Below are positions 4,240-60,445 of a DNA stretch of 64,000 bases, one piece after another. Made by a program: the position numbers and the translations under genes. This DNA comes from an uncultured Dehalococcoidales bacterium (GTDB taxonomy: Bacteria > Chloroflexota > Dehalococcoidia > Dehalococcoidales > BS750m-G39): contig CAYNGD010000006.1 of the NCBI GenBank assembly GCA_964396965.1, positions 8,771-72,770 of the forward strand, written 5' to 3'. The stretch's first letter is position 1. The number at the start of each line of letters is the position of its first letter. Below the pieces are notes generated by a model. That model worked only from the letters and a program-made list of their open reading frames with translations. It was not told the origin of the DNA and ran no database searches.

Positions 4240-4572
4240 AAATTCTCCAATAAAAAAACCTCTCGCCTTAGGGGCGAGAGGTTAATCCTTCGCGGTGCCA
4301 CCCTAGTTGATTGCCAAAAAGGCAACCATCTCTCTTCGGGTACAGCCTTGGCGATACCCTGGGCTTGCTAACGGTGCCCTTCCGTCAAAGCCTACTCGGT
4401 CATCCCTTTCGGTTTGCGGCTCCCGAGTCCATTCAGCCCCGGCGCTGGCGCCGGTTTCCACCACAAGGCCCAGAAAAATCTCCGATTTTCCCGGGGACCC
4501 TCATCCGGCTCTCTGCCGCCCCGTTCTGGAGCCTACTAGTCTCGTTCTCAGCCTTTGTGCCATATTCAGTTT
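4240..4572 (-). promoter_or_regulatory. T-box riboswitch leader, tryptophan specifier (UGG)
   Basis: Minus strand shows an AGAGA box, a specifier loop GAA-UGG-A (UGG = 4431..4429), an AGUA box, and the conserved T-box AGGGUGGCACCGCG (4304..4291), which competes with the 5' arm of the terminator. The UGGC bulge fits an NCCA end with discriminator G, as in tRNA-Trp. Confidence 0.85.
4252..4282 (-). terminator. Intrinsic terminator of the T-box leader
   Basis: Minus strand reads CCUCUCGCC-CCUAA-GGCGAGAGG followed by UUUUUUU, about 20 nt before the trpE RBS/ATG. Confidence 0.8.
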
Positions 4573-4721: not shown

Positions 4722-4794
4722 GCCCGAGTGGCGCAATGGCAGCGCAACCGACTTGTAATCGGTAGGTTAGCGGGTTCGACTCCCCTCTCGGGCT
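4722..4794 (+). tRNA. tRNA-Thr (anticodon UGU)
   Basis: Acceptor GCCCGAG/CTCGGGC, D arm GCGC-AATGGCA-GCGC, anticodon arm ACCGA-CTTGTAA-TCGGT, and a TTCGACT T-loop. One imperfect pair in the T stem. No encoded CCA. Confidence 0.85.
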
Positions 4795-4814
4795 GGGATT
4801 TACTGGCGATGTGG

Positions 4815-4899
4815 GGAGGGGTGCCGGAGTGGTTAATCGGAGCAGACTGTAAATCTGCCGCCTGAAATGGCTACGCAGGTTCGAATCCTGCCCCCTCCA
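4815..4899 (+). tRNA. tRNA-Tyr (anticodon GUA), long variable arm
   Basis: Acceptor GGAGGGG/CCCCTCC, anticodon loop CTGTAAA, long variable arm, and T arm GCAGG-TTCGAAT-CCTGC. Confidence 0.9.
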
Positions 4900-4940
4900 C
4901 TGTAGCGTAAAAACTAGAAATATGGTATCTTGTTCATAGT

Positions 4941-5013
4941 GCCCACATAGCTCAGTCGGTAGAGCACCATCTTGGTAAGATGGGGGTCACCAGTTCGAAT
5001 CTGGTTGTGGGCT
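4941..5013 (+). tRNA. tRNA-Thr (anticodon GGU)
   Basis: Acceptor GCCCACA/TGTGGGC, D arm AGCTCAGTCGGTAGAGC, anticodon loop CTTGGTAAG, and T arm CCAGTTCGAATCTGG. Confidence 0.9.
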
Positions 5014-12598: not shown

Positions 12599-12650
12599 TC
12601 TGCTATAATAATACAAAATATATAAAATATTCCGGTGACAGCGGGTGCCG

Positions 12651-12774
12651 TCAGGGCTTAATAGACTGCCTGCCGAGGAGATAGAAGGCTTGAAGGTTAA
12701 GTCCTTGTGCGGCAGGCGCAGGGACTTGCTTTTTTAGGCGGATATCAAGTAGTGTTAATCGGGGGTTAAGGGAG
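12651..12774 (+). promoter_or_regulatory. Putative rplJ (L10) leader / attenuator
   Basis: Hairpin AAGTCCTTG...CAGGGACTT (12699..12727) followed by TTTTTT (12730..12735). Upstream CTGCCTGCCG can pair alternatively with CGGCAGGCG. Sits immediately before the rplJ RBS. Confidence 0.45.
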
Positions 12775-15859: not shown

Positions 15860-17404
15860 TTAGGATACCAGGCTTCTTGGCCGGTACTGGATGGCTTCGG
15901 CGATATGGTGGGCCTTGATGATGTCGGCGCCCTCCAGGTCGGCCAGGGTGCGGCCTATTTTGAGGATGCGGTGGAAGGCCCGGGCGGAGAGGTAAAGCTG
16001 TTTCATGGCCGTCCTGAGCAGGCCCTGGGCCGACTCCTCGGTTGAGCAGAACTCCCTGACCTCGGTGGGGGTCATCTCGGCGTTGCAGGCGATAGCCGTC
16101 CCGTTAAAGCGCTGGCGCTGTATCGAGCGGGCGGCTTCCACCCTCTTCTGCACCTTTTCCGACCTTTCCCCCAGCCTGTCGTCGGCCAGCTTCTCGTAGT
16201 CAATGTGGGGCACCTCGACGAAGATATCCACCCGGTCGATGAACGGGCCGCTGATGCGCTTCTGGTAGCGGACAACCAGCCCCGGTGTGCAGGTACACGC
16301 CTTGAAGGGGTCGCCGTAGTAGCCGCAGGGGCAGGGGTTCATCGCTCCCACCAGCATGAAGTTGGCCGGGAAGGTGACGCTACCGTTGGCCCGGCTGATG
16401 GTGATTACCCGGTCCTCCAGGGGCTGGCGCAGCACCTCCAGCACCGAGTGGCCGAACTCGGGGAGCTCATCGAGGAAGAGCACCCCCCGGTGGCTCAGGC
16501 TTATCTCGCCCGGTTTGGGCCAGTGCCCGCCCCCCACCAGCCCGGCGTGGGAGATGGTGTAGTGGGGGGAGCGGAAGGGGCGCTCCCTCACCAGTGGGGT
16601 GTTGGCCGGAAGTAAGCCGCTGACGCTGTATATCTTGGTGACCTCCAGTGCCTCGGCGCTGGTCATCGGCGGCAGCAACGAGGGCAGTGAGCGCGCCAGC
16701 AGTGTCTTGCCGCTGCCCGGCGGCCCCATCATGATGATATTGTGGCCGCCCGCCGCCGCTACTTCCAGGGCCCGCTTGACGTGCTCCTGTCCCTTGATAT
16801 AGGCCAGGTCGGTGGGGGGTAGGGCGGAGGGGGAATATTTCTCGGCTGGCCTGGCCTGGAATTTGGGGGCCGGTATCTCCCCGCGAAAATAGCTGACCAG
16901 TTGGGGCAGGGAGGTAAAGGGGAGGATTCTGGTGCCGTCTATCAGCGACGCCTCCTGGGCGTCAACCTCGGGCACGATAGCGGTGGCCAGGTTTTCCTGG
17001 TGGGCCAGGGCCACCATGGGCAGGATGCCGTTGGTGTGGCGCAGGGCGCCGTCCAGGGCTAGCTCACCGAGGAGAACAGTCTGGGAGAGATCGGCGGAGA
17101 GCTGCTCCGAGCTGAGCAGGATGCCGACGGCGATGGGCAGGTCGTAGGCCGGCCCGGCCTTTTTAAGGCTGGCCGGGGCCAGGTTGACCACGATGCGCTT
17201 CATGGGGAAGTTGCAGCCCGAGTTACGGATGGCTGCCCGAACCCGCTCCCTGGCTTCCTGGACGGCGGCATCGGGCAGCCCCACGATGGTAAATGAGGGC
17301 AGGCCGGGGGAGATATCCACCTCGACCTCAACAATAGCCCCCTCCAGCCCGACCACGGCGCAGGTGGTTACTTTGGCTAGCATTAAAGCTATATTACCGC
17401 TCAA
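15860..17404 (-). CDS. comM: Mg-chelatase-like ATPase ComM/YifB
   Basis: 514 aa with an N-terminal Lon-protease-like domain, Walker A GPPGSGKT, LFLDELPEF, and a C-terminal ChlI-like region. Confidence 0.9.
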   Translation of the reverse strand: MSGNIALMLAKVTTCAVVGLEGAIVEVEVDISPGLPSFTIVGLPDAAVQEARERVRAAIRNSGCNFPMKRIVVNLAPASLKKAGPAYDLPIAVGILLSSEQLSADLSQTVLLGELALDGALRHTNGILPMVALAHQENLATAIVPEVDAQEASLIDGTRILPFTSLPQLVSYFRGEIPAPKFQARPAEKYSPSALPPTDLAYIKGQEHVKRALEVAAAGGHNIIMMGPPGSGKTLLARSLPSLLPPMTSAEALEVTKIYSVSGLLPANTPLVRERPFRSPHYTISHAGLVGGGHWPKPGEISLSHRGVLFLDELPEFGHSVLEVLRQPLEDRVITISRANGSVTFPANFMLVGAMNPCPCGYYGDPFKACTCTPGLVVRYQKRISGPFIDRVDIFVEVPHIDYEKLADDRLGERSEKVQKRVEAARSIQRQRFNGTAIACNAEMTPTEVREFCSTEESAQGLLRTAMKQLYLSARAFHRILKIGRTLADLEGADIIKAHHIAEAIQYRPRSLVS

Positions 17405-17435
17405 GCCTGCTGGGTGTCAACGAACTCAATTCTTT

Positions 17436-17572
17436 TATTCACCCCATCCCCCTTTATCCCCCTTCCCCTAGAGGGGAAGGGGGAAGTGATTTTAAGAGGG
17501 GGCATTAGCCCCCTCTCTATTTTTCTCCCCCTTTCCTTTCCAAGGGGGATTAAGGGGGTGAGGTTGCTAGAT
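17436..17572. repeat. Cluster of three G/C-tract hairpins (repeat copy R1, divergent member of the intergenic repeat family)
   Basis: Three hairpins: CCCCCTTCCCCT/AGGGGAAGGGGG palindrome, GAGGGGGC-ATTA-GCCCCCTC, and CCCCCTT...AAGGGGG. Flanked by TTCACCCCATCCCCC and GGGGGTGAGG. Confidence 0.6.
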
Positions 17573-17592
17573 AATCTCAATGGTCCTGAGTG

Positions 17593-17622
17593 TTGACAAA
17601 CTTTACCTCTATGTGATAGATT
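17593..17622 (+). promoter_or_regulatory. Sigma-70-type promoter of leader L1
   Basis: TTGACA (17593..17598), an 18 nt spacer, then TAGATT (17617..17622). Confidence 0.5.
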
Positions 17623-17629
17623 AAACGCG

Positions 17630-17818
17630 ATATGTTAAGTCAGGCTGTCTCCTGGAGTTTATTTGCCGATTTCGCCTTTACAGGGCGCACCCGGTGCGCT
17701 TGGGGGGCAGCTTGTTTGAAAATTTAAGGCTATTTAAGATATAAAGAAATCCAGAAGAGACCCTCCCAGGCGGAGGGATTTTTGTTTATTAAGGGAACTA
17801 ACCATAAGGAGGGGTAGC
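17630..17818 (+). promoter_or_regulatory. Structured 5' leader L1 with terminator/antiterminator (unclassified cis-regulatory RNA candidate)
   Basis: Terminator CCCTCC-CAGGC-GGAGGG plus ATTTTTGTTT (17761..17790). Upstream GCTTGGGGGG (17698..17707) is complementary to the terminator 5' arm. Paralogous to L2. Confidence 0.5.
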
Positions 17819-19027
17819 ATGGCTGGGCCTTTAGACGGGGTCAGGGTGGTGGAGATAACCATGTTTCAGCAGGGGCCGGTGGCCGGTATGAGGTTGGGTG
17901 ACCTGGGTGCCAAGGTGATTAAGGTTGAGGCTAAGACCGGAGACCCAGGTAGAGGGATGATGAGGATGGTCGGCGTCGATGCCGGCCTAAAGGGGCGAAA
18001 CTATTACTTTGAGAGCAATAACCGCAACAAGAGGAGCATCGTCCTTGACCTTAAGACGAGAAAGGGGATGAAGGTATTCTTAAAGCTGATTGACCGGGCT
18101 GATGTCTTTCTGACCAACATGAGCATCGAGGCACCGCAGAGGATGGGCATCAGCCCCGAGGTGTTGCTCAAGAGAAATCCACGGTTGATCTATGCCCATG
18201 CCTCCGGATGGGGCCGTAAAGGCCCGGATGCCAGCGAGCTTTCCTTCGACTATACCGGCATTGCCCGGTCGGGGACGATGATGATGTGTGGGGAGAGGGG
18301 TGATCCGCCGGGAATCCTGATACCGGGTATGGGTGATGAGCAGGGTGGGCTTATCTGCGCCTGGGCGGTGACCGCCGCCCTCTATGCACGGGAGAAGACA
18401 GGCCGGGGGCAGCTGGTCGATACCTCTTTGATGGGCAGCCTGATTTCCCTGCACGGGGTCAGCTTCTCGGCGCCTGGGGTTCTGGGACAGGAGTTCCCCA
18501 GACTACTCAGGTCGGAAGCGGGCAACCCGATTTATAACCACTATGGGTGTAAGGACGACAAATGGATTGTCTTGGCTCACCTCCAGCCCGACCGGTACTG
18601 GCCCAATGTCTGCCGGGCGATGGGGCTGGAGGAGCTGGAGCATGACCCCAAATTTAGCACGATAGAAGCCAGGCACGATAATGCCAGGGAGCTGGTGGCT
18701 ATCCTGGACGAGAGGTTCGCCACCAGGACCAGGGATGAATGGATGGAGATTTTTAAGAGGGAGGATGTAATCTATACCCCGGTCCAGTCAGCCAGCGAGG
18801 TCTTTGAGGACGGACAGGCGCTGGCCAATGACTATATCATCCCGGTTGACCATCCGGTCTGGGGCAGGATAAAGATGCTGGGCTTCCCCTGGACATTCCA
18901 CGAGACACCAGCCTCGGTGCAGAGGGAGGCCCCCGAGCTCGGCCAGCACACCGAGGAGATTCTGCTGGAGCTGGGCTATAGCTGGGAGGATATCGCTGCT
19001 TTAAAGAATGAAGAGGCGATACCTTAA
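17819..19027 (+). CDS. Class III (CaiB/BaiF family) CoA-transferase
   Basis: 402 aa with LDGVRVVEITMFQQGPVAGMRLGDLGAKVIKVE at the N-terminus and family-typical length. Confidence 0.88.
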   Translation: MAGPLDGVRVVEITMFQQGPVAGMRLGDLGAKVIKVEAKTGDPGRGMMRMVGVDAGLKGRNYYFESNNRNKRSIVLDLKTRKGMKVFLKLIDRADVFLTNMSIEAPQRMGISPEVLLKRNPRLIYAHASGWGRKGPDASELSFDYTGIARSGTMMMCGERGDPPGILIPGMGDEQGGLICAWAVTAALYAREKTGRGQLVDTSLMGSLISLHGVSFSAPGVLGQEFPRLLRSEAGNPIYNHYGCKDDKWIVLAHLQPDRYWPNVCRAMGLEELEHDPKFSTIEARHDNARELVAILDERFATRTRDEWMEIFKREDVIYTPVQSASEVFEDGQALANDYIIPVDHPVWGRIKMLGFPWTFHETPASVQREAPELGQHTEEILLELGYSWEDIAALKNEEAIP

Positions 19028-19047
19028 AGGCTGCTAAAAGGATGAGT

Positions 19048-19076
19048 TTGACAATAGCGCTTTTATATGTTAAGAT
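19048..19076 (+). promoter_or_regulatory. Sigma-70-type promoter of leader L2
   Basis: TTGACA (19048..19053), a 17 nt spacer, then TAAGAT (19071..19076). Confidence 0.5.
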
Positions 19077-19082
19077 TAGGTT

Positions 19083-19295
19083 TGCTTAAATATGGATGAG
19101 AATAAGATGTTAAATATCGCCTTCCAGGACTATTATTACGCCTATTATTTTACACCGAAAGGTGTGCTTGGGAGGTTTGCGGCCTGAAGCAGGGTAGTTA
19201 AGAGCTAAAAATAAACAGGAAAGCTAAAAGGAACCCTCCCAAGCGGGAGGGTTCTCCGTTTTTAGGAATATAACCAAAGGAGGACTAAAAATCAA
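19083..19295 (+). promoter_or_regulatory. Structured 5' leader L2, paralogue of L1
   Basis: Terminator AACCCTCCC-AAGC-GGGAGGGTT plus CTCCGTTTTT (19232..19263). Upstream GCTTGGGAGG (19166..19175) is an exact complement of CCTCCCAAGC in the terminator 5' arm. Confidence 0.5.
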
Positions 19296-20237
19296 GTGAC
19301 CGAAAGAATGGTTAAAAGAAGGTATGAAATCTTTACCATTGCCCCCAACTTTTACCAGCTGGGTACCCCCTCCTATCCGGCCTATCTGACGATGGGGGAT
19401 AAAGGGATGATTATCGAGGGGGGCACCGGGGCTACCTTTCCCATTATCGTTGCCCAGCTCCGGGAGCTGGGCAACGAGCCGGAGCGGATAGAATACGTTG
19501 CCCTTACCCATACCCACCCCGACCATTTCGGCGCCGTACCGCACCTAAAGAAGCTGTGGCCTCATCTGAAGGTTATCGCCAGCGACCTGGCGGCTAAGCT
19601 GCTGCAGAAGGAAGAAGTCATCAAGGACTTTGTCCGCATGGATCGCACCATCGCCGAGATTCTGCTGGTCAAGGGCGATATCGACTGGTGGCCCGTCGAG
19701 CTGGAAAACCCGGTCTTCAAAATTGATAGGATTGTCGGCGAGGGGGATAAGATAGACCTCGGTTCGGGTATGGTATGGACCGTTTATGAAACGCCGGGGC
19801 ATTCGCCCTGCCATATCTCCTTTCACAACGAAAGGGATGGCATACTGGTTATCGGGGACGCCACCGGGATATACGAGCCCGACAAAGAGGTCTTCTGGCC
19901 TAACTATTTCCAGTCCCTGGAGGAGTACTGCAACAGCATTCGCAAGCTGGCGGTGCTGCCGGCTAGGATAGGCGCCCGCAGCCACGGCGGTGTTGTCGGA
20001 GGGGAACCCGGGCACTATTTGCGGAGGGTTATAAAAGCTACCGAGGCTTATCACCGCGAGCTGATGGACCGGCTGGCTGGCGGTGAGAGTCCTGAGGCGA
20101 TTGCCCTGGATAAGGCGAAGTGGGTATATACCTTCACCAACCTACAGCCCTTTAAGCTGATACATGCCATGACCGGGCTTACCCTCAGGCTTTCTCAGGC
20201 GGCGGATGGTAAAGAAGGCCTGTTTGGTGTCCCCTGA
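19296..20237 (+). CDS. MBL-fold metallo-hydrolase
   Basis: 313 aa with the HTHPDH (HxHxDH) motif plus later His/Asp ligands. Start codon is uncertain because the RBS is 12 nt from the GTG. Confidence 0.8.
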   Translation: MTERMVKRRYEIFTIAPNFYQLGTPSYPAYLTMGDKGMIIEGGTGATFPIIVAQLRELGNEPERIEYVALTHTHPDHFGAVPHLKKLWPHLKVIASDLAAKLLQKEEVIKDFVRMDRTIAEILLVKGDIDWWPVELENPVFKIDRIVGEGDKIDLGSGMVWTVYETPGHSPCHISFHNERDGILVIGDATGIYEPDKEVFWPNYFQSLEEYCNSIRKLAVLPARIGARSHGGVVGGEPGHYLRRVIKATEAYHRELMDRLAGGESPEAIALDKAKWVYTFTNLQPFKLIHAMTGLTLRLSQAADGKEGLFGVP

Positions 20238-20279
20238 ACTCAGGCAAGGTGTTATAATACAGCGAAGAGGAGTAACGTT

Positions 20280-21437
20280 ATGCCAAGTGAGGCTATTGGC
20301 GGGCTGATGGCAGCCGATAAATACTACCAGGACTACGGCGCCAGGGCCAGAGAGCTTAAGAAGCAGGGGAAAAAGATAATAGGCTACCTGTGCGCCTTTA
20401 CCCCGGTGGAGATCATCACCGCCGCCGGCCTAGTGCCTTTCCGGATAAAAGGAGATGTTAACGAGCCCATCACTAAGGCCGATACTGAGATGGAGACCAT
20501 CGTCTGCCCCCTGGTGCGGAGCTGCTTTGATATGGCGCTTAAGGGAAACTATGAGTTCCTTGACGGCATCGTCATCCCCCACGCCTGTGACAGCATCTCC
20601 CGGACCTACGATGTCTGGAAGTATTCACTGAACCTCCCCTACTCCCATTTCATCAATATGCCCCACAGCACCGACGGGCCGTCACTCGAATTTTACAAGG
20701 CGCTGCTGGGCACGTTAAGGAAGAGCCTGGCCAAGTTTGCCGGAAGAGAGATTTCCGACCAGGACTTGAGAGAGGCAATAAAGCTCTACAACCAGAACCG
20801 GGCTAAAGTGCGGGAGCTGTATGAGCTGAGGAAGGCCTCGCCGCCCCTGATATCGGGTGCGGAGATAACCAGGGTGTTGGTAGGGGCAATTAGCCTGCCG
20901 GTTGAGGAGGCCACCCGGCTCGTTGACAGCGTTATCGAAGAGGTCAAGCAGCGGCCGCCGCTACCGGCCAAGGCAGCCCGGCTGATGGTGGTTGGTGCCG
21001 AGGTTGACGATATTGCCTTCATCGACCTCATCGAGGACAGCGGGGCCTGGGTGGTGGCCGACGACCTCTGCCCCGGGGCGAGGGAGTTCTGGGCCGATGT
21101 TGAGGTCACCAAGAATCCGATTGACGGCATCGCCGAGCGGTATTTAAGGAAGATAAACTGCGGCCGGACCTTCCGTGAGAGAAAAGGGAGCTATGACGAC
21201 TATCTCGAGGAGAGGTTCGGGCATATCGGGCGTTTTATTAAAGAATTTAAGGTGGATGGGGTGGTGCTCTATATTTACAAGTACTGCGACCCTTACGGCT
21301 TCGACGTGCCGCCGATGAAGGGCTACATCGAATCTAAGGGAACGCCGGTGCTCTACCTTGAGGACGAGTATTCCATGTCCACCATCGGCAGGCTCAGGAC
21401 CAGAATTCAGGCCTTCCTGGAATTGATTGCTAAATAG
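20280..21437 (+). CDS. Benzoyl-CoA reductase / 2-hydroxyacyl-CoA dehydratase family subunit (BzdN/BcrC/HgdB-like)
   Basis: 385 aa HGD-D-type sequence (IGYLCAFTPVEIITAAGLVPFRI, conserved Cys in CPLVRSC, PHACDS). Confidence 0.85.
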   Translation: MPSEAIGGLMAADKYYQDYGARARELKKQGKKIIGYLCAFTPVEIITAAGLVPFRIKGDVNEPITKADTEMETIVCPLVRSCFDMALKGNYEFLDGIVIPHACDSISRTYDVWKYSLNLPYSHFINMPHSTDGPSLEFYKALLGTLRKSLAKFAGREISDQDLREAIKLYNQNRAKVRELYELRKASPPLISGAEITRVLVGAISLPVEEATRLVDSVIEEVKQRPPLPAKAARLMVVGAEVDDIAFIDLIEDSGAWVVADDLCPGAREFWADVEVTKNPIDGIAERYLRKINCGRTFRERKGSYDDYLEERFGHIGRFIKEFKVDGVVLYIYKYCDPYGFDVPPMKGYIESKGTPVLYLEDEYSMSTIGRLRTRIQAFLELIAK

Positions 21438-21458
21438 TAGTTTATAAGGAGAACGGTT

Positions 21459-22796
21459 ATGACCGAGGAGAAGAAACCGGAGGAGAGAAAAAAGAGGAGG
21501 ACGGCCACCGAGGCGGCGGCCAAGATAGGGCCGATGGCCAAGGCGATGAACGCCGCCGTGCTTCAGGCGAGCCAGGATGGCGAGCCGATAGCCTACTCCT
21601 TTATCTACAGCGGCTATGACGAAATCATCCGGGCGATGGATATCGTCCCCGCCTGGACGGAGAACTACGCCGGAATCTGCGGTGCCAAGCGCGATGCCCA
21701 GCGGTTCCTGGAGAGGGCGGAGGGGGAGAACTTCTCCCGCTCCCTCTGCACCTACGCCCTCTGCGGCCTGGGCTTTGACAACTGGCGCGAGGAGCTGGGG
21801 GAGATGCCCCTGGATGCCCCCTGGGGTGGGCAGGCCCGGCCCACGGTGATGCTGGGCAGCGGCCAGGTCATCTGCGACCCCAGGTACAAGTGGTACCAGG
21901 CGGCCCAGCACTATATGACCGACGTGCCGGTCTATGTCGGCGGGCTGCCCTATCCCCCCTATGAGGAGGACTACGACTACCGCGAGGTGCAGGACTACTA
22001 CGTGAAATATATCGTCGGGGAGCTGCGGGGGCTGGTCGAGTTTCTGGAGAAGAATACTAATAGAAAGATGGACTGGGAGCGCTTGAGCCAAGTGGTTGAC
22101 ATCAGCGACCGCACCTGGAACACGATTTCCGAGGCCTACGACCTGCGCAAGGCGGTGCCCTGCCCGATGGGCACCGGCGACGCCATGAATACCATGGTGC
22201 CGATGACCTTCATGATGGGAACCCAGGAGGCCCTGGACTTCTTCAAGGACCTATATGATGAGCTTAAGTGCAAGATAGCCAACAAAGAGGGCGTAATTCC
22301 CGACGAGAAATACCGGCTGCTCTGGGGTGGGGGGCTGCCCTCGTGGTTTGCCCTGACTGATTTTAACTACTTCAACAGCAGGGGGGCGGTCTTTCCCGCC
22401 GAGACTACCTACCGGCTGCTGGAGCCGGTCTATAAGCTGGACTTACCTAAGGTCAGCGACCCACTGGAGCACCTGGCCTGGCGCTGGGTGAGGTACTGGA
22501 CCTGTCGTCATGACAGGGCCAGGAAACGCCCGGGCTCTACCCCTGAGGTTGAGCGCCTTATTGAGTATATCGAGGAATACAAGATAGACGGGGTGGTGAT
22601 GCACGAGGCCTTCTCCTGCCGCAGCTGGCACCCCGGCCTGATATGGCAGCTTAACCAGCTCAAACGGGTCTATAGTGATATACCATCGCTGGTTCTGGAG
22701 AGCGATATCGTTGACATCAGCTCCTATAACGAGGCCGACACCAGGGCCAGGATAGATGCCTTCATCGATACCCTGGAGGCGGTCAAGAGCCGGTGA
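21459..22796 (+). CDS. Benzoyl-CoA reductase / 2-hydroxyacyl-CoA dehydratase family subunit (BzdO/BcrB/HgdA-like)
   Basis: 445 aa, second HGD-D-type subunit with conserved Cys residues (SLCTYALCG, AFSCRSW). Tightly linked to its neighbours. Confidence 0.85.
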   Translation: MTEEKKPEERKKRRTATEAAAKIGPMAKAMNAAVLQASQDGEPIAYSFIYSGYDEIIRAMDIVPAWTENYAGICGAKRDAQRFLERAEGENFSRSLCTYALCGLGFDNWREELGEMPLDAPWGGQARPTVMLGSGQVICDPRYKWYQAAQHYMTDVPVYVGGLPYPPYEEDYDYREVQDYYVKYIVGELRGLVEFLEKNTNRKMDWERLSQVVDISDRTWNTISEAYDLRKAVPCPMGTGDAMNTMVPMTFMMGTQEALDFFKDLYDELKCKIANKEGVIPDEKYRLLWGGGLPSWFALTDFNYFNSRGAVFPAETTYRLLEPVYKLDLPKVSDPLEHLAWRWVRYWTCRHDRARKRPGSTPEVERLIEYIEEYKIDGVVMHEAFSCRSWHPGLIWQLNQLKRVYSDIPSLVLESDIVDISSYNEADTRARIDAFIDTLEAVKSR

Positions 22797-23638
22797 AAAG
22801 CCAGTATTTCGCCGGGGTTGACATCGGTTCCACCATGACCAAGGTGGTCATCATGGACCAGGCGACCCTGGCCTCGGTTATCGGCCCCACCGGCCCCGAG
22901 CACCGCAAGCTGGCCAACCGGGTGATGGAGGAGGCGCTAGGCAAGGCCGGACTTGCCTTCGAGGAGATAACCTACCTGGTGGCCACCGGCTACGGGCGGA
23001 TCAACGTCCCCTTCGCCGACAGGCAGATAACCGAGATATCCTGCCACGCCCGGGGGGTGGCCCACCTGCTGCCCGGGGTGAGGACGGTGATTGACATCGG
23101 CGGCCAGGACAGCAAGGGAATCAAGCTCAAAGACGGGCGGGCGGTGGACTTCGTTATGAACGACAGGTGCGCCGCCGGCACCGGCCGCTTTCTGGAGGTG
23201 ACCGCCGAGAGCCTCGGCGTCAGCCTGGAGGAGATGGGTAAATTAGCGCTGGAGGCTAAGAATAAGGTGGAGATAGGCAGCACCTGCACCGTCTTCGCCG
23301 CCCAGGAGGTAGTGGCCAAGCTCTCCGAGGGGGCGGCGCTGGCCGATATCATCGCCGGCCTGCACGAGGCGATTGCTACCCGGATATACGGCATGGTCCG
23401 GCGCCTGAAGATAGAGAGGGAGGTGGCCCTGACCGGCGGCGGGGCTAAGAATATTGGCCTAGTTAAGTCTATGGAAGCTAAACTGGGCTTCCCGGTGCTG
23501 CTGCCACCGGAGCCGCTGCTCACCGGGGCTATCGGGGCGGCGCTGCTGGGTGGGGATATAGTCAAGGAGGCGGAGAAGAAGGGAGAGAAACTAAAGAAAA
23601 GCCCCCGTCGCCTCACTGAGGCTACCTTGTTTACATAA
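22793..23638 (+). CDS. BcrAD/BadFG/HgdC-type ATPase (electron-activating subunit 1)
   Basis: 281 aa with GVDIGSTMTK, DIGGQDSK, cluster Cys motifs RCAAGTGRFLE and STCTVFA. GTG start overlaps the upstream stop (GTGA). Confidence 0.88.
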   Translation: MKSQYFAGVDIGSTMTKVVIMDQATLASVIGPTGPEHRKLANRVMEEALGKAGLAFEEITYLVATGYGRINVPFADRQITEISCHARGVAHLLPGVRTVIDIGGQDSKGIKLKDGRAVDFVMNDRCAAGTGRFLEVTAESLGVSLEEMGKLALEAKNKVEIGSTCTVFAAQEVVAKLSEGAALADIIAGLHEAIATRIYGMVRRLKIEREVALTGGGAKNIGLVKSMEAKLGFPVLLPPEPLLTGAIGAALLGGDIVKEAEKKGEKLKKSPRRLTEATLFT

Positions 23639-23653
23639 TATAGGAAGAAAATC

Positions 23654-24439
23654 ATGATATATGTTGCCGGGATTGATATCGGCTCCGCCTTCGCCAAGGC
23701 GGTGATAATGGCGGAGAATAAAATAGTCGCCCACCGGGTAAAGCCCTCCGGCGGGAACTACAGGCTCACCGCCGGGCAGGTTATGGATGAGGCTCTTGAC
23801 AAGGCCAGGCTATCTCAAAAGGATATAGCCGGTACCGTAGCCACCGGCTACGGCGCATCCAGCGTCTCTTCGGCCAGCCAGACAGCCTCGGATATATCCT
23901 GCCTGGCTAGGGGGGTGCACTATCTCTTTCCTGGTGCCCGCACCGTCATTGATATCGGCGGGCAGTTCACCCGAGTGCTTAAATTAGACGGGCGGGGGAG
24001 GGCCACCTCCTTCCTGCTCAGCGAGAAGTGCGCCGCCGGTAGCGGGCGATTTCTGCAGGTGATTGCCAGGGTGCTTCAGGTTAACCTTGATGACATCGGC
24101 GAGCTATCGCTAAAGTCCAAGAAAAGGGTTGACTTCAACACCGGCTGCGCCGTCTTCGCAGAGTCGGAGGCGGTATCCCGCATCGCCGAGGGGGCGGCCA
24201 AGGAGGATATTCTGGCCGGTCTGCACCGGGCTCTGGCGGCTAAGATTCAGGCCATGGTGGCCAGGCTCGGCCTTGAGCCTGAGTGTGCTGTGGTGGGGGG
24301 TGGGGCCAAGGATATCGGGCTGGTCAGGAGCATAGAGGCCGGGCTGGAGGGTAAACTGCTGATTCCCGACGAGCCGCAGATTGTGGCCGCCCTGGGGGCA
24401 GCCCGGCTGGCCGGGGAAAAGGTCGATCAGGGGGACTGA
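23654..24439 (+). CDS. BcrAD/BadFG/HgdC-type ATPase (electron-activating subunit 2)
   Basis: 261 aa with GIDIGSAFAK, DIGGQFT, KCAAGSGRFLQ and TGCAVFA. Distinct paralogue of the preceding gene. Confidence 0.88.
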   Translation: MIYVAGIDIGSAFAKAVIMAENKIVAHRVKPSGGNYRLTAGQVMDEALDKARLSQKDIAGTVATGYGASSVSSASQTASDISCLARGVHYLFPGARTVIDIGGQFTRVLKLDGRGRATSFLLSEKCAAGSGRFLQVIARVLQVNLDDIGELSLKSKKRVDFNTGCAVFAESEAVSRIAEGAAKEDILAGLHRALAAKIQAMVARLGLEPECAVVGGGAKDIGLVRSIEAGLEGKLLIPDEPQIVAALGAARLAGEKVDQGD

Positions 24440-24440
24440 T

Positions 24441-25832
24441 ATGATTGATAAGAAGATTATAACCGAACTACGCAAGACGGTAGGCGAGAACGCCGTCATG
24501 ACCTCAAAGGAGGACCTCAATGCCTACTCCTACGACGGCACCACTACCTGGGCTCACCCGCCCGACGTGGTGGTGCTGCCGACCACTGCCGAGCAGGTCT
24601 CCCACATCCTGAAGCTGGTTAACGAGCACAGGGTCCCGGTCACCCCCAGGGGGGCCGGCACCAACCTCAGTGGCGGCTCCATCCCGATAAAGGGGGGTAT
24701 CGTCCTCTGCACCACCAGGATGGATAAAATACTGGACATAAACAAGGCCAATCTGACCGCCACCGTCGAGCCCGGCGTGGTGCTCCAGGACTTCAATCTG
24801 GCCCTGGCCAAGCAGGGGTTGTTCTATCCCCCCGACCCCCAGAGCTTCCTAGGCTGCACCCTGGGTGGCAACGTGGCCGAGAATGCCAGCGGCCCCTACT
24901 GCGTCAAGTATGGGGTAACCAAGCAGTACGTGTTGGGGCTGGAAGTGGTCCTGGCCAACGGCTACATCATGAAGCTGGGTGGGGTGACGGTCAAGAACCG
25001 CACCGGCTATGAGCTGATGATGCTGTTCACCGGCTCCGAGGGAACGCTGGGGGTAATCACCAAGATAACCCTCCGGCTGCTGCCGATGCCGCCGGCCAAC
25101 CAGACGGTGATGGCTGTCTTTGACGATGTGGCCGTCGGTGGGCAGGCGGTATCCGATATCATGGCCAGCGGGGTGGTGCCGGCCAAGGTCGAGTTCGTTG
25201 ATAACTTCGTCCTGAGGCGAATCGAGGAGATGACCCCGATGGGTCTGCCGGTGGAGGCCAAGGCGCTGCTGCTGATCCAGACCGATGGCTCGCCGGCGGC
25301 GGTTGAGGCCGAAACTAAGCAGATTGTTGAAATACTGAAGAAGAGCGGGGCCAAGGAGGTCAGGGTGGCCAAGGACGCTGCCGAGGCGGCGATGTACTGG
25401 AAGATGAGGAGCGCCGGCTATGCTGCTACCTTCGGTGCCGCCCATACCGTCATGACCGAGGACGTGACCGTGCCCCGGGACCGGATGGCCGAGTTCATCC
25501 ACAAGCTGGAGGAGATATCGGAGAGGACCGGCTTCTTTATCTGCTACCTGGGCCATGCCGGCGACGGCAATTTGCACCCATCGATATTCACCGATATCAG
25601 GAACGAGGAGGAGTTCGCCCGCGCCCAAAAGGCGATGGAGGAGATATTCGAGTCGGCGCTCTCGGTGGGCGGCGTCCTCTCCGGCGAGCACGGCATCGGT
25701 CTGGAGAAACAGCGCTTCCTCAAGCGGGCGATGGACCCGGTGGCCCTTGACCTGATGATAAAGATAAAGGGAATTTTGGACCCCAACCATATCCTCAACC
25801 CGGGCAAGATATGGGAAGAGGAAAGGGTTTGA
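24441..25832 (+). CDS. FAD-linked oxidase, GlcD / D-2-hydroxyacid dehydrogenase-like
   Basis: ATG 24441 lies 1 nt after the upstream stop (the track ORF from 24381 is an upstream extension). Shows an FAD PCMH domain (PRGAGTNLSGGSIP) and C-terminal GEHGIG. Confidence 0.88.
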   Translation: MIDKKIITELRKTVGENAVMTSKEDLNAYSYDGTTTWAHPPDVVVLPTTAEQVSHILKLVNEHRVPVTPRGAGTNLSGGSIPIKGGIVLCTTRMDKILDINKANLTATVEPGVVLQDFNLALAKQGLFYPPDPQSFLGCTLGGNVAENASGPYCVKYGVTKQYVLGLEVVLANGYIMKLGGVTVKNRTGYELMMLFTGSEGTLGVITKITLRLLPMPPANQTVMAVFDDVAVGGQAVSDIMASGVVPAKVEFVDNFVLRRIEEMTPMGLPVEAKALLLIQTDGSPAAVEAETKQIVEILKKSGAKEVRVAKDAAEAAMYWKMRSAGYAATFGAAHTVMTEDVTVPRDRMAEFIHKLEEISERTGFFICYLGHAGDGNLHPSIFTDIRNEEEFARAQKAMEEIFESALSVGGVLSGEHGIGLEKQRFLKRAMDPVALDLMIKIKGILDPNHILNPGKIWEEERV

Positions 25833-25833
25833 T

Positions 25834-27123
25834 ATGGCCAGGACCGAGCTGGACAAATACCAGCAGATAAAGAGGTTTGAGGACGACCTGGGCCAGTGCA
25901 TGAAGTGCGGCTTCTGCACCTTCTGGTGCCCGGTCTACCGGGAGGAGCGGGTAGAACCTTCGGTGGCACGGGGCAAGGACATGATGATAAGAGGGCTGCT
26001 GGCCGGTGAGCTGGATTATACTAAGGAGTATGCCGACCGCCTGAACCAGTGCACCCTCTGCATGGCCTGCACCGCCAACTGTCCGGCCAAGGCCAACATT
26101 CCCAACGTCATCGTCGCCGCCAGGGCGGACACGACCAAAGCTCGTGGCTTGAAGTTTCCCTATAATATCGTCTACCGCTGGCTGCTGCCCCGCCGGACGC
26201 TTTTCGGTGGCGTGGTCCGCTTCGCCTCCTGGCTCCAGGGTATCTTTATGCCCAGGACCGAGGGCACCATCCGGCATCTATCCCTGTTCCTCTCGGCGCT
26301 AGGCCGGGGCCGGAACATACCCCAGATTGCCCCCCACTTCCTGAGGCAAACGGTGCCGGTGGTGAATAAGCCGCCGGAAGGCGTTAAGACGGTGATGACG
26401 GTGGGCTATTTCACCGGCTGTATGACCGACTTCGTTCTGCCTGAGCTGGGAAGGCATATTATCGACTTCCTGACCCGGAACGGGGTCGAGGTCATCGTGC
26501 CCCGCGAGCAGGGCTGCTGCGGATCGCCGGTTTTCCTGGGGGCGGGTGACTTCGACACCGGCCGGAAGATGGCCGATAGCAACGTTAAGGCCTTTGAGGA
26601 GGTGGACTACGTGGTCACCGACTGTGCCACCTGTGTCTCGACGCTTAAGGACTACCCCAAATTTCTGGCCGATAGCCCGGAGCGGGAGGAGGCCTACAAG
26701 AAGTTCGCTGGCAAAATACTGGATATCTCCCAGTTCCTGGTTGACGTGCTGAAATTACCGGCGTCGGCCTATCAACCCTCGGCGGAAGCCAAAGGCAAGA
26801 AGGTCACCTGGCACGACCCCTGCCACCTCAGCCGTTATCTGGGGGTAACCAGCCAGCCCCGGCAGATTATAAGGTCGATACCCGGTGTGGAGTACATCGA
26901 GATGCCTAACGCTGACCGGTGCTGCGGCATGGCCGGGACCTTCAGCTTTTACTACTACGACCTGTCCAAGCAGATTGCCGATAAGAAGGTGGCGGCAATC
27001 AAGTCCACCGGGGCCGATATCGTCGTCACCGGCTGCCCCGGCTGTGAGATTCAGCTTATTGACAGCCTGCTGCGGAACAAGGTCCCGGTAGAGGTGATGC
27101 ACATTATGGAGCTGCTGGCCTGA
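25834..27123 (+). CDS. Fe-S oxidoreductase, GlcF/HdrD-like (2x[4Fe-4S] plus two CCG domains)
   Basis: 429 aa with CMKCGFCTFWCP, CTLCMACTANCP, CCGSP and CCGMAG. Confidence 0.88.
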   Translation: MARTELDKYQQIKRFEDDLGQCMKCGFCTFWCPVYREERVEPSVARGKDMMIRGLLAGELDYTKEYADRLNQCTLCMACTANCPAKANIPNVIVAARADTTKARGLKFPYNIVYRWLLPRRTLFGGVVRFASWLQGIFMPRTEGTIRHLSLFLSALGRGRNIPQIAPHFLRQTVPVVNKPPEGVKTVMTVGYFTGCMTDFVLPELGRHIIDFLTRNGVEVIVPREQGCCGSPVFLGAGDFDTGRKMADSNVKAFEEVDYVVTDCATCVSTLKDYPKFLADSPEREEAYKKFAGKILDISQFLVDVLKLPASAYQPSAEAKGKKVTWHDPCHLSRYLGVTSQPRQIIRSIPGVEYIEMPNADRCCGMAGTFSFYYYDLSKQIADKKVAAIKSTGADIVVTGCPGCEIQLIDSLLRNKVPVEVMHIMELLA

Positions 27124-27144
27124 CGGGCTATCGCAGGCTCTGAC

Positions 27145-27178
27145 AGAGGCTGGTTTTTAAAGCCAGCCTCTTTTGTTT
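27145..27178 (+). terminator. Intrinsic terminator after the glcF-like gene
   Basis: AGAGGCTGG-loop-CCAGCCTCT followed by TTTTGTTT. Confidence 0.7.
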
Positions 27179-60356: not shown

Positions 60357-60445
60357 CGGAGGGGGTGGGATTCGAACCCACGGCCCCGGTTTCCCGGAGC
60401 AACGGTTTTCAAGACCGTCACCATAAACCGCTCGGACACCCCTCC
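60357..60445 (-). tRNA. tRNA-Ser (anticodon UGA), long variable arm
   Basis: Minus strand shows acceptor GGAGGGG/CCCCTCC, D arm GTCCGAGCGG, anticodon loop CTTGAAA, a long variable arm, and T arm GTGGGTTCGAATCCCAC. Confidence 0.9.

Follow-up and report, generated by a model that had tools for sequence, protein, structure and literature searches.

Putative leader-peptide attenuators with Phe and Tyr codon clusters upstream of a CoA-transferase gene and its neighbouring operon in an uncultured Dehalococcoidales bacterium

In the trpL leader of E. coli, region 1 contains the Trp codons, and the pause hairpin is that formed by 1:2 pairing. The E. coli leader-peptide attenuators pheL-pheA and pheM-pheST likewise contain a short open reading frame (ORF) with a run of Phe codons, alternative 1:2, 2:3 and 3:4 hairpins and an intrinsic terminator (PMC3082878, PMC11802643). 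In C. glutamicum, stalling of the ribosome on the Phe-Tyr-Phe leader aroR controls aroF, which encodes DAHP synthase (Neshat et al. 2014, as described in PMC11802643); according to the same account, AroR contains only three aromatic residues and is reportedly responsive to Phe and not to Tyr. The tyrS, pheS and aro genes of Firmicutes are preceded by T-box leaders, which are also used for tyrosine genes in that phylum, and a survey of Actinobacteria found no Phe or Tyr attenuators (PMC1262725). Here we describe two leaders, L1 and L2, in a 64,000-nucleotide stretch of the genome of an uncultured Dehalococcoidales bacterium (contig CAYNGD010000006.1, positions 8,771 to 72,770; the window hereafter). 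From their sequences and from RNA modelling, both are very probably transcription attenuators of the Yanofsky type, in which a ribosome translating a leader peptide senses the charging of tRNA-Phe and tRNA-Tyr. A literature search turned up no description of leader-peptide attenuation in Chloroflexi, of Tyr-run leaders or of this Dehalococcoidia operon.

Each leader contains four regions: R1, within the ORF just 5' of the aromatic codons; R2, a G-rich segment; R3, the C-rich arm of the terminator plus the loop; and R4, the 3' arm of the terminator. The elements are listed below in window coordinates, with the partners of R1 taken from minimum-free-energy (MFE) folds.

17593-17622, + strand: L1 promoter, TTGACA, 18-nt spacer, TAGATT, TG-extended, 10 of 12 consensus matches
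17632-17727, + strand: L1 leader ORF MLSQAVSWSLFADFAFTGRTRCAWGAACLKI, 31 codons plus stop
17643-17657, + strand: L1 region 1 GGCUGUCUCCUGGAG, the anti-antiterminator strand, partner of region 2 at 17698-17712
17653-17679, + strand: L1 regulatory aromatic codons W8, F11, F14 and F16, assigned by sequence inspection
17685-17699, + strand: L1 hairpin P, GCGCAC-CCG-GUGCGC, its final two bases being the first two of region 2
17698-17712, + strand: L1 region 2 GCUUGGGGGGCAGCU, partner of region 1 or region 3
17761-17787, + strand: L1 terminator, with region 3 CCCUCCCAGGC at 17761-17771, region 4 GGAGGG at 17772-17777, then a U-tract
19048-19076, + strand: L2 promoter, TTGACA, 17-nt spacer, TAAGAT, TG-extended, 10 of 12 consensus matches
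19107-19187, + strand: L2 leader ORF MLNIAFQDYYYAYYFTPKGVLGRFAA; 31 aa if begun at the in-frame ATG further upstream, 19092
19119-19128, + strand: L2 region 1 GCCUUCCAGG, partner of 19167-19176
19131-19151, + strand: L2 regulatory codons Y9 Y10 Y11 A12 Y13 Y14 F15
19152-19165, + strand: L2 hairpin P, ACACC-GAAA-GGUGU
19166-19176, + strand: L2 region 2 GCUUGGGAGGU
19230-19263, + strand: L2 terminator, with region 3 within GGAACCCUCCCAAGC at 19230-19244, region 4 GGGAGGGUUCU, then CCGUUUUU

The L1 peptide begins MLSQAVSWSLFADFAFTG and the L2 peptide begins MLNIAFQDYYYAYYFT, each with a cluster of aromatic codons; L1 would sense mainly Phe and L2 mainly Tyr. In both leaders the ORF opens shortly 3' of the predicted start of transcription. 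The L1 terminator (17761-17777) carries the tail ATTTTTGTTT, and the L2 stem-loop (19230-19255) is followed by CCGTTTTT. Read from the upstream ATG, the L2 ORF (19092-19187, equivalent to L201 1774-1869) is called as an unannotated 31-aa gene in a public assembly.

At the level of sequence, the two leaders show all the features of the trpL/pheL/hisL class: an ORF, a codon cluster, a terminator, and the 2:3 and 1:2 pairings. They would share with trpL the four-region logic, in which a ribosome at the stop codon, or no translation at all, leads to termination and a stalled ribosome to antitermination. Unlike in trpL, R1 lies upstream of the regulatory codons in most members of the family described below, and a separate small hairpin is fused to R2. 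Compared with the phe leaders of E. coli, they come from another phylum, show no sequence or covariance-model similarity, include non-canonical targets, and carry the regulatory codons downstream of region 1, in the bulge that separates R1 from the extra hairpin. The gathering score of the Rfam family Phe_leader (RF01859) is 55; its best matches here reached 24.1 and 22.3 bits, cover the terminator only, and in one case lie on the wrong strand. Like the T-boxes of Firmicutes, L1 and L2 would sense aminoacyl-tRNA status through a terminator/antiterminator choice upstream of the same kinds of genes; T-boxes, however, bind uncharged tRNA directly and need no translation, unlike the scheme proposed here.

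The initial annotation of this stretch, made from its letters, had pointed to the alternative pairing of R2. As it had noted, GCTTGGGAGG in L2 (19166-19175) has an exact reverse complement, CCTCCCAAGC, at 19235-19244, inside the terminator stem-loop 19230-19255. In L1, all 10 positions of GCTTGGGGGG (17698-17707) pair with CCTCCCAGGC (17762-17771), within the terminator at 17761-17777, and the two G-U pairs fall exactly where L1 and L2 differ in sequence. These differences had been described as compensatory changes; they are one-sided changes tolerated as G-U, with no double changes between the two leaders. The hairpins described upstream, GCGCAC-CCG-GTGCGC and ACACC-GAAA-GGTGT, are found directly 5' of R2, and conservation of their structure with different sequence extends well beyond this pair: of 135 distinct leaders, 127 have a hairpin of 5 bp or more immediately 5' of R2, and these hairpins use 54 different stem sequences. 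MFE folding of both leaders revealed a third pairing, R1:R2, between early codons of the ORF and the G-rich segment, which completes the classical 1:2 / 2:3 / 3:4 scheme. The duplex energies of R1:R2, R2:R3 and R3:R4 are -18.8, -18.3 and -12.2 kcal/mol in L1, and -15.0, -19.8 and -22.5 kcal/mol in L2. The same C-rich arm had also been suggested to sequester the ribosome-binding site. Such a duplex is possible (-9.5 to -12.9 kcal/mol) but absent from the MFE folds, and the scheme does not require sequestration, since R3 is engaged with R2 in one state and with R4 in the other.

From these elements we infer that the ribosome stalls, when it does so and which way the response runs, as follows. 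A strong sigma-70-type promoter would start transcription, and the short ORF would be translated at once; R1 within its early codons would be followed by the aromatic cluster (W/F/F/F in L1, YYYAYYF in L2), hairpin P and R2. With ample Phe/Tyr, or with no translation, R2 would be covered by the ribosome running to the stop codon, or held by R1; with R2 unavailable, R3 would pair with R4 and transcription would terminate. When Phe/Tyr is scarce, the ribosome would stall on the first aromatic codons and cover R1, and the freed R2 would capture the nascent R3, preventing the terminator and allowing read-through into the CoA-transferase gene (L1) or the L2 operon.

To obtain homologous leaders independently of the RNA, we gathered them through the CoA-transferase encoded downstream of L1 and fetched 80 genome loci. 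Relatives of the CoA-transferase are numerous in metagenome-assembled genomes of Dehalococcoidia, and the leader was detected by nhmmer in 22 of the 80 loci, usually twice per locus: before the CoA-transferase gene (type a) and after it (type b), where the next gene encodes an MBL-fold protein (the arrangement of the window) or another CoA-transferase. Including the two of the window, this gave 37 leaders, 22 of type a and 15 of type b. The closest CoA-transferase homologues (75-84% identity, L003-L024) have no leader, and the leader-bearing loci encode homologues at about 70-73% or 87-88% identity. The CoA-transferase family of Dehalococcoidales would thus comprise paralogous lineages with and without this regulation.

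The short ORF, R1:R2, the hairpin, R2:R3 and the terminator are kept in all 37 leaders, with ATG or GTG at the aligned start position, and the TTGACA of the L1 promoter is kept among homologous leaders. Type-a peptides follow the pattern ...SPGL(Y/F)(Y/F)T(D/N)F(I/V)FT..., with 2-4 Phe plus Tyr, and type-b peptides the pattern ...IASQxYYY(Y)(Y)AYF..., with 4-7 Tyr plus 1-2 Phe. Synonyms are interchangeable in the aromatic patch (TAT 60, TAC 46; TTT 53, TTC 28). In type b, codon-position entropy has a clear period of three (0.21, 0.36 and, at position 3, 0.71), which is not seen in type a (0.45, 0.47 and 0.53). Beyond the patch, the frame and the position of the stop codon vary among homologues, and the nucleotides of hairpin P and R2 are conserved, which indicates that the 3' part is constrained as RNA and the aromatic patch as codons.

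Pairing in the terminated state (R1:R2, hairpin P and terminator) amounts to 96.3% for type a and 93.6% for type b; controls with the partner slid give 46-63%, and the observed scores were reached by none of 500 shuffles. Double changes occur at five pairs in each alignment, chiefly pairs of the outer R1:R2 helix, hairpin P and the terminator. In the type-a alignment A3, R1:R2 (helix 12-18/82-88) shows compensatory changes and hairpin P (helix 57-62/66-71) pairs in 21 of 22 leaders; in alignment A4, R1:R2 (helix 15-24/72-81) is 98% paired. Terminator stems are conserved while switching from CCCUCC/GGAGGG to CCCCCC/GGGGGG. For the antiterminator, 93.6% of R2:R3 cells are paired in the 37 leaders, compared with 39-65% when the partner is slid, and the consensus returned by RNAalifold is R2:R3. 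One R2:R3 pair is G-C in 17 leaders, A-U in 16 and G-U in 4, and is broken in none of the 37; within type a alone, R2:R3 is 87% paired with little covariation. The covariation anticipated in a wider alignment is thus found mostly in R1:R2, hairpin P and the terminator, and in the antiterminator it is confined to a single pair. Column-based counts on the MAFFT alignments are blurred by one-column register shifts in G/C runs and by the difference between GCGGAGGG and GCGGGAGGG terminators, so that some cells scored as unpaired are alignment artefacts.

These leaders settle the claim that the window holds a regulated terminator/antiterminator and not a chance resemblance. Taken from the window alone, the evidence for R2:R3 complementarity is weak: the L2 10-mer, allowing at most one mismatch, is not enriched there (13 matches, 24 expected), and the duplex z-scores against shuffled R2 are modest (-1.9 and -2.9). 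G-rich segments readily pair with any C-rich arm, and the complementarity could then be a by-product of composition at ordinary terminators or insulators between transcription units, with no regulation involved. We regard this explanation as hardly credible: each terminator lies 3' of its own promoter and 5' of the gene to be silenced, the elements stay in register, with compensatory changes, in 37 leaders anchored by a protein, and the same cassette is reused before aromatic-pathway genes.

A metabolite- or protein-binding attenuator of the riboswitch type, in which a ligand, a tRNA or an RNA-binding protein is the signal and the short ORFs are incidental, would account for the real terminator/antiterminator alternative and for the unusually conserved R2/R3 sequence, which could be a binding site, as well as for an L1 ORF that lacks a Shine-Dalgarno sequence. 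The Rfam scans give it no family: at gathering thresholds, over the whole window, neither leader was matched, and at E up to 10, over 17400-19400, only chance microRNA and terminator matches appeared, with no riboswitch, T-box or leader family. Further, the sole sizeable unpaired stretch is the aromatic patch, which varies synonymously and in length and has both a start codon and an open frame in every one of the 37 leaders, and peptide composition follows the target gene, which a ligand aptamer leaves unexplained. We consider such a mechanism very improbable. The initial annotation had envisaged a ligand as the sensor; instead, both leaders hold a conserved short ORF with Phe or Tyr codon clusters plus R1:R2. 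Specific candidates were also rejected. The interval between R1 and R2, where a metabolite aptamer would lie, consists of open-frame aromatic codons of variable number and a simple 5-7 bp hairpin. The T-box covariance model matches the window only at 4267-4558 on the minus strand, with no match in 17400-19400 at E up to 10. A TRAP-like reading fails on the same grounds as the rivals above.

To model the effect of a ribosome within the proposed attenuators, nascent RNA was folded up to R3, before R4, with a 28-nt ribosome footprint imposed as a hard constraint. When the first aromatic codon occupied the A site, 36 of 37 leaders were predicted to form R2:R3 with 6 bp or more. Without a ribosome, R1:R2 formed in 26 of 37 and R2:R3 in only 10; with the ribosome at the stop codon, R2:R3 formed in 11 of 37. 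For the metagenome leaders introduced next, transcripts ending 12 nt past R2 formed R1:R2 in 83 of 105 among the matches listed.

To find further members, metagenome contigs were scanned for the pattern GCTTGGGRGG-N(40-70)-CCCTCCCRRGYGG, which includes neither the ORF nor the downstream gene; at least 120 stretches matched. The counts and peptide cores that follow are those among the matches listed, in which a rightly placed, aromatic-rich short ORF occurs in all but about five. The genes behind the leaders were as follows.

60 of 120: DAHP synthase with a ferredoxin-like domain, the commonest target
20: CoA-transferase
7: PheS, with PheT next in L115
6-7: HisC-like aminotransferase, with HisB next in L141
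4: MBL operon
4: HMGL-like gene, replacing DAHP synthase before aroB-D-E
3: octopine-dehydrogenase-like gene
1: AMP-ligase
1: ABC transporter, IorA/IorB-like oxidoreductase and PaaK-like ligase (L161)

In L093, DAHP synthase is followed by AroB-AroD-AroE-AroK-AroA-AroC. The leaders of DAHP synthase have the core LYYAYFTF, with means of 3.8 Tyr, 2.4 Phe and 0.7 Trp; those of PheS have a Phe-only core, F-N-x-N-F-(I/M)-F; those of the HisC-like gene have HYYYYY(YYY)AF, a run of 5-8 Tyr; those of the MBL operon have YYYGYYYF; and those of the CoA-transferase are either Phe-type or Tyr-type. Peptide composition thus matches the target, as codon-sensing attenuation predicts and as other explanations hardly would. 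The pheST target is common to E. coli and this family (leader, PheS and PheT in L115). As in C. glutamicum aroR, a mixed aromatic leader precedes DAHP synthase, here with cores such as LYYAYFTF; unlike aroR, the family has target-specific versions, including the runs of 5-8 Tyr, and one R2/R3 cassette shared across many operons.

An aromatic-rich peptide could also act in the manner of TnaC, arresting its ribosome in response to free Phe/Tyr or an aryl compound, so that abundance would be the inducing signal. This catabolic logic would suit Fld-like enzymes, since the CoA-transferase, HAD/BCR-like radical enzyme and 2-hydroxyacid dehydrogenase families are known chiefly from fermentation and the catabolism of aromatics. 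The aromatic residues, however, differ freely in number (3-8 Tyr) and order, and conservation is lacking elsewhere in the peptide, as is typical of codon sensing; the same cassette controls DAHP synthase, shikimate genes and pheST, which need starvation logic; and termination is intrinsic, not Rho-dependent. Arrest by the nascent peptide is, in our estimate, very improbable.

Several of the other metagenome targets are of interest in their own right. The HMGL-like gene, of the aldolase/isopropylmalate-synthase fold, lies directly 3' of an aromatic leader and is followed by aroB-aroD-aroE (L157 2006-3871 and L163 6708-10381; also L155 and L159); it may provide an alternative first shikimate step. 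Genes of the octopine/nopaline-dehydrogenase family and ABC-transporter genes stand behind an aromatic leader in L132 (6401-14741) and L199 (3154-7335), and in L132 they are followed by a further DAHP synthase-aroB-aroD-aroE-aroK block.

Codon-sensing attenuation by L1 and L2, our preferred reading, has to be weighed against a number of observations that do not favour it. The L1 ORF starts only about 2-4 nt 3' of the predicted transcription start and has no Shine-Dalgarno sequence, and that of L2 is weak. The U-tract of L2 is interrupted, and two homologues lack a good one. In the MFE fold of the window's L1, an alternative local hairpin is favoured over the conserved hairpin P. The antiterminator covariation rests on one pair, reflecting few evolutionary events, and the metagenome set, having been chosen by the R2/R3 pattern, cannot test R2:R3 pairing. 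When full-length RNA is folded to equilibrium with the stall in place, the terminator is kept in 30 of 37 leaders and R2:R3 forms in 6 of 37; as the RNA at equilibrium keeps its terminator despite the stall, the switch must be kinetic, as in trp. In the single-ribosome model, R1 can re-pair when the stall is at either of the two distal invariant Phe codons of type a. Finally, the target genes in the window are not recognised aromatic-biosynthesis genes. They are as follows.

17819-19027, + strand: family III CoA-transferase under L1 (Pfam PF02515, E 4.5e-116)
19296-27171, + strand: operon under L2, closing at the terminator 27145-27171

The CoA-transferase matched no NCBIfam model at its cutoff. 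The L2 operon encodes an MBL/ODP-fold protein, two HGD-D (BzdN/HadC-like) subunits, two activase-type ATPases, a GlcD-like FAD dehydrogenase and a GlcF/LdhH-like Fe-S protein. Among proteins of solved structure, BzdN (196 bits) and HadC (152 bits) score best against the HGD-D subunit at 20280-21437, and the NCBIfam matches of both HGD-D subunits all fall below their cutoffs. The enzyme families encoded here are those of the aryl-lactate/aryl-acrylate (Fld/Had) pathway and of class I benzoyl-CoA reductases. The link of the CoA-transferase and the HAD/BCR-like operon to Phe/Tyr is one that we infer: by the logic of the attenuators, both would be induced by Phe/Tyr starvation.

A Phe link of the CoA-transferase would find independent support outside the Dehalococcoidia. 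In seven Desulfobacterota-type loci (L075 3687-3905; also L049, L059, L066, L067, L070 and L077), a homologue with 68-72% identity lies behind a Phe-rich leader of unrelated sequence, about 215-340 nt upstream. The leader ORF is very rich in Phe, for example MKFFGQTFFFSFFFCFSQRSAQLRNIK (beginning MKFFGQTFFFSFFFCF), and hairpins and a U-tract terminator lie 3' of it. Behind the CoA-transferase gene of L075 come genes for a 481-aa protein with no Pfam match and a UbiD-family (de)carboxylase.

One possible function, which we put forward tentatively and hold to be somewhat doubtful, is an anabolic, starvation-induced salvage of aryl acids to Phe and Tyr by the L1 CoA-transferase and the L2 operon. 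Cinnamate/p-coumarate or (R)-aryl-lactates would be converted to phenylpyruvate and 4-hydroxyphenylpyruvate and then to Phe and Tyr, effectively a reversal of the clostridial Fld aryl-lactate pathway, switched on at Phe/Tyr starvation. The proposal is based on the starvation-inducible control, the regulon shared with shikimate genes and the co-regulated IorAB-like/PaaK-like set. The operon with that set and an ABC transporter, under the same cassette, matches the known aryl-acid route of methanogens; in Methanococcus maripaludis, as cited in PMC4162585, aryl acids feed aromatic amino-acid synthesis via indolepyruvate oxidoreductase. In L161 (3312-11913), the leader (..TFTYHYAYTFPE..) precedes a Peripla_BP_6 ABC transporter, an IorA-like protein (POR_N plus TPP_C, 601 aa), an IorB-like protein and a PaaK-like AMP-binding ligase; these are the genes of the route from aryl acids to aromatic amino acids.

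Judged by their sequences, the Dehalococcoidia leaders are a new family of putative attenuators working by a well-known mechanism, and they belong to no curated family. Three features depart from the known examples: the bulged regulatory codons, the use of one R2/R3 cassette across a regulon, and the long Tyr runs, for which no counterpart was found in the literature. The family would extend classical leader-peptide attenuation to the Dehalococcoidia (Chloroflexota), and in a modular form, with the peptide re-tuned for each target: Phe for pheS, Tyr runs for hisC and a mixture for the shikimate operon. Its main value lies in the prediction of function, since attenuators may reveal what the genes under their control do, and here they suggest a testable role for an abundant, uncharacterised operon of uncultured sediment Dehalococcoidia. 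CoA-transferase and radical-enzyme genes of this kind are usually annotated as benzoyl-CoA-reductase-like or dehydratase-like "aromatic degradation" genes; the window operon would instead behave as part of an aromatic amino-acid supply regulon.

A profile search of the window with nhmmer returned no copies beyond L1 and L2. Between the stop codon of the CoA-transferase gene (19027) and the L2 promoter (19048) there is no terminator, so that transcripts escaping the first attenuator would enter the second, and the downstream operon would then be gated by leaders of both the Phe and the Tyr type. The window also contains a T-box leader at 4267-4558 on the minus strand (97.7 bits), a cluster of three tRNA genes at 4722-5013 (+ strand), an L10 ribosomal-protein leader at 12614-12740 (+ strand) and a tRNA gene at 60357-60445 (- strand); with the T-box and the putative leader-peptide attenuators together, the same genome would use both modes of control. 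Upstream of L1, at 17440-17565, lie two strong G/C-rich palindromic hairpins, 17457-17484 (12 bp) and 17495-17516 (9 bp), both between the divergent promoters of a ChlI-like gene (minus strand, 17420-17391) and of L1, and a similar motif, AAGGGGGAT(A/G)GGG, is found 5' of the -35 box in L025, L038 and L039.

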